The notes beneath the pieces were generated by a model, which saw only the letters and a program-made list of their open reading frames with translations, did no database searches and had not been told where the DNA came from. Below, one piece after another: positions 2,321 through 58,473 of a stretch of 64,000 bases of DNA (positions are counted from its first letter, which is position 1; each line of letters begins with the position of its first letter). The stretch is from the NCBI GenBank assembly GCA_964016885.1, contig OZ024742.1, forward strand, positions 80,724,001 through 80,788,000, read 5' to 3'. The stretch comes from Eledone cirrhosa (taxonomy: Eukaryota). Made by a program: the position numbers and the translations under genes.

Positions 2321-3346
2321 GCCTGTTTTTTTGAAAGTTTTTTGAAAGTAAAATTTAACAATGACTGTTATTCGGTAGTATTGGTAAAGCGTTGGACAAC
2401 ATGTTTTGCAGCATATATCATAGTTATGATCCTTTAGGAACATCTACAACACTGAAGAACCACAATGTGGACGATCTAAGTTTGCATCACTACCTTGACA
2501 TTGCTTCAGATATGAGTGAAAGCTAAATGGTAAACCATGCCAAGGTGAACACTACCATCACAACCCCTGTTAACGCTACCATTACCGACATAAACATCGA
2601 ACCGACTTCGGTTACGAACATAAACAAGACAAGCAGCAACAGCAAGAGTAACTGAAACGGTGAAAGCACAAACAACAAACACAGCTAAAACAAAAGCGTC
2701 AAACTTTCAACGGTCCAAAGATCGAGAAATCAAACGAAGGATCCAACAGCTCTGTTAAGTCGCCAGCAATCAAATCTCCTTGCTAGTCGGCCAGAGAAAA
2801 ACGGCACGTTTTAAAAAAAAGAGAGGCCCCTAGTAGAAACAAAACAAAGATTACCACTTATTCAGCTGCTTTATTTACGCGGGTACAAAACCAATTGTAA
2901 AAGACTGTTCTCAGAGAGGAGTGACTAAAGGACGCAAAGAAGATGCTACGAGAAATGTGTCACAGTTTCATCCTCAAGCCTCCGCCCGAAATGATGGAAA
3001 CAACACTTCCTTGTACAATGACATACAGTATAATTGGTATTAAGTAATGTCGGGTTGAGGAATTAGCGCATCCAATATACAAAAAGCCTTGTAATGCATG
3101 TTGGGATGTAAACATATATTGCCCAAATGTAAATATATATATATATATATATATATATATATATATATATATATATATATATATATATATATGTACATAT
3201 ATATATATATATATATGCAAAAGTGTTATTTAAAATTGTTGGGTTACAACAAGTAAATATTTTATAACTGATATAAAGCACTCAGCAAGTTTTGGAGTAG
3301 ATATACGATATTAAACAAATGGAAACTATATTTATAAAACCATATT

Positions 3347-3412
3347 TATTTCATTATACATATTTCAGGGATACCATATTAAAAATATGGCATGCCTTCT
3401 TCAGATAAAATA
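3347..3412 (-). ncRNA. Type I hammerhead ribozyme motif (PLE pLTR)
   Basis: Inverted copy of 5739-5804 with intact CTGAAGA and GAAA core. Confidence 0.7.
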
Positions 3413-5043
3413 CAATATATAAGCAGTTTTATAAATAAATTTGACGTACCATATATATTGATCAACTTGTATGTAAGAAGTTGGTTTGGTAGTGAGATGT
3501 TTATAAATATTTAGTGTTAAGCACAGTTAGAAAGAAAGACGGAGAAAAAGAAGAAATGTATGTAAAGAAAAAAAAAGAGAGAGATAGAGAGAGAGATAGG
3601 GGAGAGAGAAATAGTGAGGGGGTGAAAAATGAGAGGCAGCTGAGGCAACAGATGAATAATAATAATTCATCATACACATTGAGAGATTTAGGAGGGAGGG
3701 AGTACTGTAATTATTTAGTTATAGTGTTAAGGAGCCGGAGAGAAATAAAAAATAAATCAAGAGAAAACAGAGGGGTAGAGAAAGATAGAGGTGGGGGGAA
3801 AAAGAGGTAGACCAAATAATAATAATTATATATGGGGAGGTGAGAGAAATAGGAGAGAAGTAAGAGAGAAAACAAGAGAGAAGCTCGAGAGGCAAAGTTA
3901 AAATAACCGATACTTAAATTTCATCATGTATAAAGAGGGAGGAGAAGAAAGAGCTATATCTAGAGAGAAGGATGATAGATTTACAAGTTTACGTTATGTC
4001 CTATCAATTTGAATTATCAATTCATATGAATTGGGTATTATAATGTAAATATCAATATTCATGAATGAGACATAGATATATAATGTGTGAAAAATAATGA
4101 CCATATGTTTAGTTTAAAAATTCTTAGGTCGATGTACCAAAAACTGAGATAAAACTTCAAAAAATACGGAAATGCATATGTATATATGTACTTTCCGGAA
4201 AAGGAAAGAAAGAGAAAAAGAGAAGGTCATCTCAAGTTCTAGGTGACACTATAGACATACCCGTGATCTTACGTGATCAACTCTGTAATTTCTTATTTCA
4301 CAGGAAACAATTTTCCCTTGTGTTATAAAAGATTTTACTATATATATATATATACATACATATATATACATAAAACTATATATTAATATTAATACTCCTG
4401 CCCTCACATACATGATTATCGTTCATGTATAGAATATTATGCATATCTGTAACATATCCAGAACTATAGCCACACATACATATATATATATATATGCGTG
4501 CGCACATATATGTACATGGACAGATACAATAAACAGATAAAATAGAATATACTCTGTAATCATTCCATATTCATATTAATACATATGGCCTTTGCACAGA
4601 GACAACAGATATTAATATATCGGCACAGAGATATCTAAACGTTAAGAATATTTTCATCACTCCCTAGAGTATCTAGGGCGTAATAAACACAGTATGCCCC
4701 CATATCAACCACAGAAATCTACCCTTCCAATTTATCTGACAATATATTGCCAAGTTCATTAGAAGCAATCAGAATCAAAAAGCAAACAAAAGACCAACAA
4801 TTATTCAACAAAACTTATTTAGCAGAAATCATTTAAAAGATTTAGGAGACCCTGCTCTTATATTTAGTATAGAAGTTTATCTAGCGTAAAATTTATTCAA
4901 TAGATTGGGAGCATCAACATTTTAGGGTAGTTTAATTACATCATTGGTATATATTTATGAAGAAGGTTTAAAAGAAAAAGTTGAAGGAATCGAAAGATTT
5001 ATCGTCAGGTTTCATAATTAATTAAATATCTTAACTAAATATA

Positions 5044-5400
5044 CTACATTTTAAATTTATATTTATATTTAAACGTTGAGTTCAATCTATGTCTGCAGCA
5101 ACTGAATAAATTGCTCCTTAAATTAAGGGAATGTTTAGATTTTAATATAAAGAATATCTCCTCCACGCAGAGGTCACATGTCTCAGATGAGGAATTAAAA
5201 GGAATCCCTCTTGAGACTATATTCCAAAACATCGAATATCCAACGTTATCATGTTTAAGTTGCCAGAGTAAGCCTGATAGTGAAGTTGAAGATTTTTTGT
5301 TTGGATCTGTGAAAGAATTCTTATGATTATTATAGCGAAGTTTAAATTCTGTCGAGGTGGAACCAACATAGTTAAAAGAATTTAAGTTAGTTTTAACATT
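5044..5400 (-). pseudogene. PLE GIY-YIG endonuclease C-terminal fragment
   Basis: Translates to NYVGSTSTEFKLRYNNHKNSF...WNIVSRG...CDLCVEEIFFI...LNLRSNLFSCCRH. Confidence 0.85.
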
Positions 5401-55844: not shown

Positions 55845-56260
55845 TGGATTGGCAGAATCGTTAGTACGTCAAATGAAATGCATTGCAGTATTTAGCAAAA
55901 TATCTCGATTATCTGGTTTCGTATTTTGCCGAACTCGATTTCGGTTATTATCTTTCCCTGGCCAATAAATTAAAGTACTTCATGCAATCATTGAGGTCGA
56001 TGTATTCAATATTTAATTTTCCCATTGATTGCTGTCCTTGTGCCGAAATTAAAAAAACTATGATTTGAAAGTGGTTTTGCTAATATCGTTAATATTTGTA
56101 GAGCTTCGCACAAAATGCATTGCAGTATTTAGTAATGGCATTCTATAGTCAGAGTTTAAATCTCACAGAGGTCGAATTTTATCGTTGAAATAAAGTACCA
56201 CTTAAATACTGGGTCAATATAATCGATGTTACACTTGTACCAAATTCCTGGCATCATGTC
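55845..56260 (+). mobile_element. Two decayed SINE family A-related copies
   Basis: ggattggcagaatcgttagtacgtc..gcagtatttag..aaattaaagtac and gagtttaaatctcacagaggtcga..aaataaagtacca. Confidence 0.55.
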
Positions 56261-58399
56261 AACATGATTACATTTATATTTGAATTGTTCTAAATGTCCA
56301 CACAGAATTGCTCATTTTAAAGCTTTATATTTGGAGAAATCAACATAAATACATTCGGAAAAAGAACTTGACTCACTGTCTGGACTGCTCCCTGATTTTA
56401 TGAATATAGATGGAAAAGAAAATGTCTCCATACTGTTTTAAATATTCAGGGCAATGAAAAGACGAAATGTTTTATAGCACCAGATTATTCGGGAAACCAT
56501 TTATAGATAAAATATGAATACATAAAACAAATATCACGTAGCATCATAACTATTTTACACGTGTTTTACACGCATATAACAGACCTATTAGAATCATAAC
56601 ATTATATGGTATAATATTGGCGAAGAAGCTTAAATATTTCGTTAAAACTTAACAGAAGGGAAGCAAAATTATATAATGAGTTACAAAGAAGGATTTACAC
56701 AGGATTTCTGAAAGAAAAATGTTATCTTGTTGGATATTATTCAAACGAGCTTCTGTCACAATATTACTTGATATAAATCCTAAGTATTTATGTAGTTTCC
56801 TCTTGGCAGAAATATAAAATGAAGCCGTATTTTGTGCATGAACAATGTGAAACAACATTAGGTAGGATCCTCCCAAGTAGAATTAGCTAATGACATTTTA
56901 AAGAAATCATGACAAATAAGCATGATAGTGTGCCAAAATACATTAGACGTATTACATGAAACTGAAAATAATGAGGAACGTAACACCCAAATAATGGTGA
57001 CGTTGAAACAATTTTCAGAACGTTTCCATATACTGTTGTCGTTTTGGCTGTAGATTAACATTTACTTGGTATGCGTGCGATGAAAAGCTTTCAAGTCATG
57101 GTCATTTTCGTATATTTCTTAGCATATCGTATATATATATATATATATATATGAATTTATTATTAAACGCTTCACCATATTTTAAAGATATTGATGAGTG
57201 ATTATGCGCTAAATTTAACAAATCCAGCGGATGTTTTTTTGCTACCATATTATATTAGCATAGCCCGAATATAATAAGATGTCATTTTACAAATTGACAA
57301 TATTCATCGAAATATTTTCACATTAAAACTAAAATTGTTTTGCATACATTCCATTCTAAAGGTACTTTAGAATAAGTCTTCATAGTATATTAATTTAGCA
57401 GTTTATAATTCAGAGACACTGATAATTCTTGGAAATAATTATGCATTATATATAATTATCATCTCATTTACTCTCCTCTAATTCTCACCATTGTAAAATT
57501 ATATAATTTTGTTCAATCTAAATGTTATACTCTAAACTTCTGATACAGCTGCATTCAAGTTAAGATAAAGCTTATATTTGGTTAATACGCATTTTGTTAC
57601 ACCCTTCGGGTAACATAGACTCAATATCGATCTTTTAAATGTCTATCATTTCCTATAAAATAACATGTGCTAGTTATTTAGCGTCAAATAAATTCTTTAC
57701 ATTCATTACATTTCCTCACAACTTGTATATTTCATATGTTGCAAGTTCTGAAACAATCTTCGTAAGCATTTGCAGGAAATTTCCAACAGCGTCTACTTAG
57801 AACTGACATCACAAATACGATATTTAACTCAATGAACGCGACTATAAAGATCTCCAGGTGTGTTCTTCGCAATTGTTTTTGATTTAATGATACATTTTGA
57901 TATATATATATATATACAAAGAACAATATATATATATATACACAGAACAAAATACCTGCTGAAGAAGCGACATCCTTGTTCGCTGATCATACCAAAAGCT
58001 TAGCATTATTTGTTTAAGCAGACATTACATGATTTAGGAGTTGCAGAAACTCTATACCGGATTTTACCACCAATTCCGAGTTGGTCCGGGAAATTTTTCA
58101 ATCATATATTATTATTTGTATGACCGGAATAGCTTGCTCGCTTATTTGGCTTTGCTGTTAATGGTATAACCATCGTCTCAGTGTGTATGGACTTTGTAAC
58201 GTATGTTTATTGATTTAGTTCACTCGTATCTATTGAGCGCTTGCCACACAATTCGGAAGTTGTTTTTCGCTAACTTCCATTAGCCGAAATGCGATTCTCG
58301 GTAATTTATATTTGTATATATATATATAAATATATATATATATATATATATATATATATATATATATATATATATATATATATATATATATATATATAT

Positions 58400-58473
58400 A
58401 GAAGTGGTTACACAACAGTTAGTTCACCATACCGAGAACAATTGTTTCACCTTCGTGGATCTTCATCTCAGGA
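58400..58473 (-). mobile_element. 74-bp pLTR fragment (50888 family) between (TA)n arrays
   Basis: Near-identical to 50953-51025. Confidence 0.8.

Follow-up and report, generated by a model that had tools for sequence, protein, structure and literature searches.

The 64,000-nucleotide (nt) stretch analysed here (contig OZ024742.1 of Eledone cirrhosa, positions 80,724,001 to 80,788,000; hereafter the window) is AT-rich animal-type DNA, dense in microsatellites, in which Penelope-like elements (PLEs) assigned to the Hydra clade and short non-coding hammerhead families lie as inverted pairs in (TA)n arrays. We describe these insertions, a bulged hairpin that is duplicated in the leaders of Hydra elements, and the correspondence between the two hairpin copies and the two points at which the insertions end.

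Inverted pairs in (TA)n arrays

Self-BLAST of the window with simple repeats masked, from which the inverted arms were mapped, recovered an inverted pair at each of the seven positions named in a first-pass annotation of this DNA (pairs A to G; Table 1). In that order, the arms are 96.9, 96.4, 98.4, 89.9, 100, 93.0 and 85.4% identical, and the short junction is separated from the long end by 89, 78, 112, 91, 80, 65 and 85 nt. One arm is the longer in all seven pairs, and the excess of 60-95 nt proposed earlier fits six of them, pair C with its 112 nt falling outside. Pair C does consist of inverted arms, but its left end lies at about 24845 and not at 24890, in a degenerate TA/CA/GA tract; this long end is the exception to the (TA)n flanks found at the insertions. 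The pairs had been read as one insertion pattern. Their layout is indeed shared, but it recurs in six families (A, B, C, D, F and X) and is not that of one element, family X accounting for both pair E and pair G. Two long/short pairs beyond these seven, Y and H, have 170 and ~140 nt, respectively, between their two sites. The Y arms are identical across 560 nt, and E and Y both have arms of 100% identity. Solo short and solo long copies are also present in the window.

The hammerheads in the arms, or in copies of the same families, read toward (TA)n, and both outer ends are therefore 3' ends, as the first reading had it. A constant arm boundary at the 5' edge of the hammerhead was considered and dropped: family X stops inside stem II, family C before the hammerhead, and families A and Y far beyond it.

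Assignment to the Hydra clade

A search for type I hammerheads gave 12 perfect-core matches in the window, against 0-1 in each of five shuffles, and a minimal core at 51173 comes in addition to these. Type I folds are predicted in families A, B (with a decayed core), C, D, F, H, X and Y. In the X and Y hammerheads (28576, 20622, 21217, 21800 and 39068), U3-A8, a tolerated natural variant of the core, replaces C3-G8, and stem II is long (50-60 nt); standard descriptors would therefore miss them. An Rfam search of the window at gathering thresholds matched no hammerhead and returned only a 5S ribosomal RNA-like sequence (61946-62064(-), 86 bits).

The sole long open reading frame (ORF), a piece at 42465-43658(-) inside pair E, matches 14 full-length proteins of 703-759 amino acids at 37-43%; over the stretch from reverse transcriptase (RT) motif B through the C-terminal nuclease it aligns at 39-44% with proteins of 700-760 amino acids. 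It holds the CxCx5C linker and CxxC, and its nuclease has no CCHH. The CxH motif is cut off in this copy, is present in the homologues and is implied by the loose ends of reads. The N-terminus is missing from the window copy; full-length homologues carry RW(K/R) and have DKT where other elements have DKG. The Hydra clade was described by Craig 2021 (PMC8557442, in the sections available to us) as PLEs with a C-terminal endonuclease, RWK, DKT, CxCx5C, CxxC/CxH around E and N, and insertion in (TA)n. Judged by the protein motifs that this copy retains, the ORF belongs to the Hydra clade. A Naiad/Chlamys PLE was rejected, the nuclease being C-terminal (theirs is N-terminal) and canonical hammerheads being present. 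A Pfam scan assigned no family to the ORF piece, and no relative was found in a viral sequence collection.

A Hydra-type nuclease end also lies inside pair A. Copies of families B, C, D, F, H and Y have no ORF, and their provisional assignment to Hydra runs through the hammerhead and the Hydra-leader hairpin described below, the latter by model matches in B, C and Y and by pattern or fold only in D, F and H. Families C and Y are tandems of non-coding monomers (periods 681 and 595, one type I hammerhead each) whose longest stop-free stretches are 97 and 83 codons, respectively, as expected of non-autonomous partners of PLEs. The PLE identity, the inverted 5'-truncated copies, the tail and the microsatellite target were thus all correctly recognised in the first-pass annotation; each had been published before (PMC8557442, within sections 6 and 11).

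Insertion ends share TA with the target

End motifs recur between insertions as first reported, at 28678/43720, at 42336/45479/51253, at 51240/58400 and at 22128/~39394. The long arm of a pair shows the template past the short end, and the overlap of that template with the TA flank was compared with what every other cut point in it would give. The fixed TA sites claimed earlier were borne out in six of the seven pairs, where the short-end overlap holds TA (null 1.3, P 2e-4), pair G being the one in which they were not. Counted by family, TA is found in eight of eight (null 1.5, P 2e-6). The short-end overlaps with the TA flank total 30 nt against 8.2 expected, and junctions share 2-7 nt of alternating TA with the target. 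At the long end, TA holds in both families that show the continuation of the template, the tandem families C and Y. Each template contains 8-43 TA dinucleotides, so TA alone is not the site selector. Two preferred TA sites downstream of the hammerhead, as the first annotation proposed, therefore fit the ends, but it is a duplicated hairpin that marks which TA is used.

A twin hairpin in Hydra leaders

In the tails of eight families, 0-6 nt past the short junction, we found a hairpin composed of RCUC, an upper stem-loop, a bulge of 1-2 nt and GAGY. Because it had been noticed post hoc, it was tested on outside DNA, namely 79 Hydra loci from metagenomes drawn from the best 80 of 389 confirmed stretches. 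The motif there is GCUC-stem-loop-UY-GAGCACU, with a density of 6.8 per kilobase (kb) within 200 nt after the hammerhead as against 0.29 per kb in the remaining sequence. The motif is duplicated, at a spacing of 55-83 nt, in 23 leaders in 22 of the 79 loci; many other contigs end before the leader. Both hairpins accompany an intact ORF in L007, L014, L020, L047, L052 and L072. An in-frame ATG follows hairpin 2 by 15-43 nt in the 16 leaders where one was found, and the order in the leader is hammerhead, ~30-60 nt, hairpin 1, hairpin 2 and start codon.

The upper stem pairs only across the 2-nt bulge (mean 2.1 pairs against 0.6 in shuffled sequences, reached in 0 of 1000), its first pair being C-G in 37 and U-A in 21 of 65. 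Among 38 aligned hairpin copies, 93.7% of cells are paired and 45 double changes occur, a level reached in 0 of 500 shuffles, while slid controls gave 19-59%. Counted across the entire window, the hairpin pattern shows no enrichment of its own (9 matches against a mean of 4.6 in 20 shuffles), and its position alone is informative. Rfam gave no match to the hairpin in the window and nothing meaningful in eight outside loci. In two outside leaders (L068 455-472 and L048 2038-2062), a (TA)n run lies directly ahead of hairpin 2, which suggests that the element's own start site can expand or serve as a target.

Both hairpins lie in the 5' leader near the start codon, and they could instead be sites of RNA cleavage or transcription stop that yield two RNA 3' ends, each then reverse transcribed from its end by conventional target priming, or could have a translational or promoter role that affects the insertion ends indirectly. 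A search of sequencing runs with one stretch listed no RNA run, which says nothing about expression. We consider this alternative improbable. Initiation by a Poseidon protein is internal and independent of the RNA 3' end (PMC11167929, in the portions available), and the ORF-less tandem families C and Y still keep both hairpins.

Insertion ends map to the two hairpins

In the window, short ends lie just before hairpin 1. Long ends lie just before hairpin 2 where the template continues beyond them, as it does in the two tandem families: the second hairpin of C and Y begins 3 and 7 nt past the long end. Outside the window, ends were located by comparing an element's own leader with its repeated terminal copy. 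This gave 27 rows. Eleven came within 10 nt of a contig end, one was a mirror duplicate and one ran through in full; these 13 were set aside, and the other 14 were informative. Ten of the 14 ends fall 0-8 nt ahead of a hairpin, three at hairpin 1 (L040, L051 and L072) and seven at hairpin 2 (L002, L025, L033, L037, L053 twice and L055). The P value of 4e-8 under a uniform null is overstated, as some of the loci are related. Among the eleven rows at contig ends, three stop 1-3 nt before a hairpin and eight do not. The flanks of the ten matched ends are (TA)n in five, (ATTT)n in one and otherwise AT-rich in four; the (ATTT)n case is the short-site end of a Hydra element at L072 2609.

A covariance model built from the outside hairpin copies only and then run on the window returned 14 matches at an expectation value (E) of 10 or below. 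Ten of these, including the nine best, fall either in a tail (families B, X, A and C) or at the second site of Y. Folded as isolated pieces, F, H and Y site 1 form the predicted hairpin. In the supplement of PMC8557442, as far as it was available, inspection by eye shows that the Hydra-1_Ajap consensus carries both hairpins at its start and terminates, at the 3' side, immediately ahead of the first; Hydra-2_Amil and Hydra-2_Ajap, also by eye, stop 20-24 nt past the first hairpin. The map of ends onto hairpins and the TA overlap are shown at the level of sequence.

The overlap of short ends with the array by TA would also be expected if every copy had gone in with the long end, and slippage between the (TA)n flank and a TA further inside had later deleted sequence to give the short ends. 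We think this very unlikely, since independent copies use the same one of the 8-43 TA sites, some of which offer better runs, and since the short site keeps one position with respect to hairpin 1 in different families and organisms.

Pair E and the read evidence

Four read runs were placed on 42325-43730. In the best 15 of 230 joints, 42460-42474 connects straight to 43661-43675 with differing letters between; these came from one run, with 44 contigs at one joint. They represent short head-to-head copies of family X without the ORF, in a public run that may be the source sample. Summed depth is far higher over the terminal piece than over the ORF, a poor measure that is consistent with heavy 5' truncation. 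Loose ends in 5470 raw reads show the native ORF running on past 42477, and loose ends further show that the terminal piece is natively preceded by other sequence, that at 28600-28620; the insertion at 42336-43720 is therefore chimeric. Its inversion join at 43660 shows 3 nt of microhomology. Among the loose ends listed, template past the family X long end was not seen.

No read or contig piece among those listed spans pair E whole, and the arms of E and Y are fully identical, both of which would fit inversions that are artefacts of assembly or of fold-back during library preparation. We consider this highly unlikely. The arms differ by 1.6-15% in six of the seven pairs first annotated, pair H holds another repeat inside, the family X head-to-head joints in the public-run contigs have differing centres, and an inverted long arm also occurs in the unrelated metagenome contig L002.

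A model for two-site initiation

Taken together, these results suggest that Hydra PLEs and their non-coding partners were inserted head-to-head and 5'-truncated in (TA)n, with ends set by a bulged twin hairpin that positions the RT; on the sequence evidence, we put the probability of this reading at about 0.6. The protein would bind the hairpin in the RNA, and its GIY-YIG domain would nick (TA)n, which is identical on both strands. The freed 3' end would pair with UA(UA) just 5' of the bound hairpin and prime complementary DNA (cDNA) there. Where both strands are nicked, most probably by a dimer bound to both hairpins, hairpin 1 would serve one strand as its priming site and hairpin 2 would serve the other, and microhomology would join the two truncated cDNAs at the centre. 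On this view, the tail would simply reflect the distance between the hairpins, and a copy with a solo short or a solo long end would stem from one priming event. We infer binding, nicking, the dimer and the use of one site per strand partly by analogy with the Poseidon protein PAc; strict pairing of one site with one strand is our proposal for Hydra elements. More tentatively still, the duplicated bulged hairpin may act as an RNA promoter of reverse transcription with two sites, at which the two halves of an RT-endonuclease dimer dock; a single RNA would then prime both strands of the self-complementary (TA)n target at a fixed offset.

The main rival is simple fold-back with resolution, in which the cDNA self-primes at its truncated end and copies back, and an endonuclease then cuts at the hairpin-marked TA to give the short arm. 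Self-priming has been proposed for head-to-head Penelope structures (PMC3846280) and the tail has been ascribed to endonuclease resolution (PMC8557442), each in the text available. Tight centres of 8-10 nt in C, G and the X-family variant I (24641..24790) are in keeping with it, and in pair E the two arms break off at an identical base and have in common 2 nt native only to the ORF junction (chance 1 in 16). However, in pairs B, G and Y it is the arm with the shorter outer end that carries the extra sequence at the centre (by alignment for G and Y, by the hammerhead fold for B), and simple fold-back therefore cannot produce these pairs. Short-site ends without a visible partner arm, full-length and solo (28678, 58400, L051 and L072), also speak against it. 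Later deletions at palindrome centres could blur the centre evidence, least for Y. On balance we consider fold-back unlikely, and RNA 3' ends at the hairpins, slippage and artefact less likely than fold-back.

Several observations weigh against hairpin-positioned initiation. The short end of pair G (51430) lies ~5 nt before the family X site (28678 and 43720), overlaps its flank by 1 nt and is ~12 nt ahead of its hairpin. Four of the 14 informative outside ends (L014, L032, L035 and an inverted piece in L040) fall away from any hairpin. Hairpin 1 escaped the covariance model in families D, F, H and Y, where loops are long, the bulge is 1 nt or the hairpin has decayed, and the model's scores for A, C, I and Y site 2 are weak (E 0.08-3); for the pieces of A, E, G and Y site 2 folded alone, the hairpin is not the minimum-energy structure. 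The basal stem is invariant through the selection pattern and provides no evidence of covariation. TA lies 2-10 nt upstream of 62 of 69 outside hairpins, with peaks at 6 and 8 nt and 29-39 in control windows, but this mostly reflects AU-rich composition (shuffle P 0.086). Family X is linked to the Hydra ORF via the chimeric junction alone. Finally, the start sites used with PAc did not differ between the strands, and its priming was described as non-homologous (PMC11167929, in the portions available).

Features of the window

The coordinates of the insertions and hairpins are collected in Table 1.

Table 1. Insertions, arms and hairpins of the PLE families in the window. Signs in brackets give the strand; model E is the expectation value from the outside-built covariance model.
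Feature	Coordinates	Strand	Details
Pair A	3217..5847		long arm 3217-3752(-), short arm 5401-5847(+); hammerhead cores 3404(-), 5747(+)
Pair A interior			~1.3 kb of unassigned sequence after 3752, then Hydra-type GIY-YIG end 5044-5400
Hairpin 1, family A	3272..3310	-	starts 2 nt past short-end overlap; model E 0.082; strict pattern match at 3298
Pair B	12289..12600		short arm left, long arm right; decayed hammerhead core 12381(-)
Hairpin 1, family B	12517..12557	+	model E 6e-7 and 1e-6; second copy 29071-29111
Family C tandem	19265..20422	-	two units, period 681, 85% alike, one hammerhead core each, no long ORF
Family C tandem, template past long end			hairpin 2 ~19803-19821
Pair Y	20468..22128		head-to-head tandem of 595-nt non-coding hammerhead monomer; left end site 1, right end site 2
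Pair Y hairpins			hairpin 1 ~21965-22024; hairpin 2 at 21537 and 20885(-), model E 0.13 (hairpin 2)
Pair H	22245..22875		short arm left, long arm right; other repeat inside at 22426-22619; hairpin 1 22740-22798
X-family variant, long end	24641..24790	-	then 24-nt inverted remnant; hairpin 1 24682-24725, model E 0.17
Pair C	24845..25335		long arm left, short arm right; hairpin 1 24909-24961(-), model E 3.1
Pair D	25372..25835		long arm left, short arm right; hammerhead cores 25587(-), 25714(+)
Pair D hairpin	~25423-25454	-	decayed; no model match
Solo short-end copy, family X	28424..28678	+	hammerhead, U3-A8 core at 28576
Solo long-end copy, family Y	38929..39394	+	
Pair E (family X)	42336..43720		long arm 42337-42475(-), short arm 43660-43720(+); hairpin 1 42377-42420(-), model E 3e-5
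Pair E interior	42476-43659	-	Hydra ORF piece, cut at both 3' and 5'
Solo long-end copy, family X	45275..45479	+	hairpin 1 45394-45437, model E 7e-6
Pair F	50888..51240		long arm left, short arm right; minimal hammerhead core 51173(+); hairpin 1 50930-50947(-), no model match
Pair G (family X)	51253..51430		long arm left, short arm right, ends ~5 nt early; hairpin 1 51295-51338(-), model E 2e-4
Solo short-end copy, family F	58400..58473	-	73 nt, TA-rich both sides

Several (TA)n arrays have features of their own. At 51240-51254, at 25329-25370 and at L053 2933-2956, one array is shared end to end by independent insertions, which indicates that arrays are struck repeatedly. Next to the (TA)16 array at 38862-38931, which lies between a PLE nuclease fragment (37941-38881(-)) and the solo family Y copy, 17-20 nt of the array's left flank recur in inverted orientation, as though a nicked (TA)n end had turned back on itself, copied its own strand and then joined the cDNA. 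An A23 run (20423-20445) lies between the family C tandem, at its 5'-truncated side, and a (TA)n array. Two more plus-strand Hydra-type nuclease ends, at 36134-37568 and 39492-~39750, start immediately behind (TA)n arrays.

A PLE of another type, frameshifted and pyrimidine-rich, occupies 29320-33750 with RT, GIY-YIG and a hammerhead-like core at 29447(-); it ends in (TA)n and gave no match to the twin-hairpin model. Two inverted pairs, 27046-27596 and 47508-48011, have no (TA)n borders; one lies in GT/CA-rich DNA and the other is a short dispersed repeat also seen at 22426, 29156 and 45874. The window further contains a decayed RT of the long interspersed nuclear element type at 470-2300 (weak Pfam RVT_1 match) and a helicase-like fragment at 34065-34962 that has no Pfam match and presumably resembles Helitron or PIF1 helicases.

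Implications

The RTs of PLEs are the closest relatives of telomerase. The origin of the PLE tail and of the inverted ends was named as an open mechanistic question in the discussion of PMC8557442, and the in vitro study of PAc, in the portions available, found two start sites but not their determinant (PMC11167929). A duplicated, covarying hairpin that predicts both ends across many organisms makes the tail question directly testable, and it provides a short signature for annotating Hydra ends and non-coding partners among repeats. If the two-site promoter, which we advance tentatively together with the conservation of the duplicated hairpin over many marine and other animal loci, is true, the tail and the inverted long/short layout would be explained in one step. 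It would also supply a cis-signal for mobilising retrozyme-like repeats, and a short RNA tag could steer cargo into microsatellites.

Comparison with known systems

Elements of the proposed mechanism have counterparts in other systems. In L1 twin priming, second-strand priming leads to inversions with a single 3' end; unlike there, both outer ends here are 3' ends. The epsilon signal of hepatitis B is a bulged stem-loop that positions the RT, with priming on protein from the bulge, whereas here priming would begin 5' of the hairpin on nicked DNA. In telomerase, a short pairing aligns primer and template.

The window agrees with the Hydra clade of PMC8557442, in the sections available, in its protein diagnostics, the hammerhead near the 3' end, the (TA)n target and short single-ORF elements. 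That paper also described inverted 5'-truncated PLE copies with a one-sided tail of 30-40 bp, ascribed to endonuclease resolution; the tails in the window measure 65-170 nt and match the hairpin spacing where both hairpins are visible. The word hairpin is absent from its main text as available to us, and the motif is visible in its supplementary consensus sequences. Neither the hairpin nor its tie to the two ends is described in the accessible parts of PMC8557442, PMC3846280, PMC7229834, PMC4209133 and bioRxiv 10.64898/2026.07.22.740005, and literature searches, whose coverage mostly left out subscription papers, older Penelope papers and Repbase reports, did not find the hairpin. The pattern first annotated was thus largely in print, and the part that is apparently undescribed is a cis-element that predicts both end points.

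The closest biochemical parallel is the work of Frangieh 2024 (PMC11167929, seen in part), in which the Poseidon protein PAc of green anole nicked and extended both strands in vitro, and two internal start sites in the RNA bounded the tail. A dimer was predicted, targets were AT-rich and the start sites lay downstream of the hammerhead. The PAc starts lie within the ORF, inside one AC-rich stem-loop, reportedly need no homology to the target and show no difference between strands. The Hydra sites, in contrast, are in the leader before the start codon, each ahead of its own hairpin and with a TA overlap of 2-7 nt. In the letters of the PAc RNA given in supplementary figure 1, no GCUC/GAGC hairpin was visible by eye.

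Families C and Y correspond to the non-LTR (long terminal repeat) retrozymes of PMC7229834 and bioRxiv 10.64898/2026.07.22.740005, which are tandem non-coding monomers with type I hammerheads; the available text of these two sources mentions no hairpin or tail. C and Y differ in keeping both Hydra-type hairpins and the same two end sites, and this combination would be a cis-signal for mobilisation in trans.

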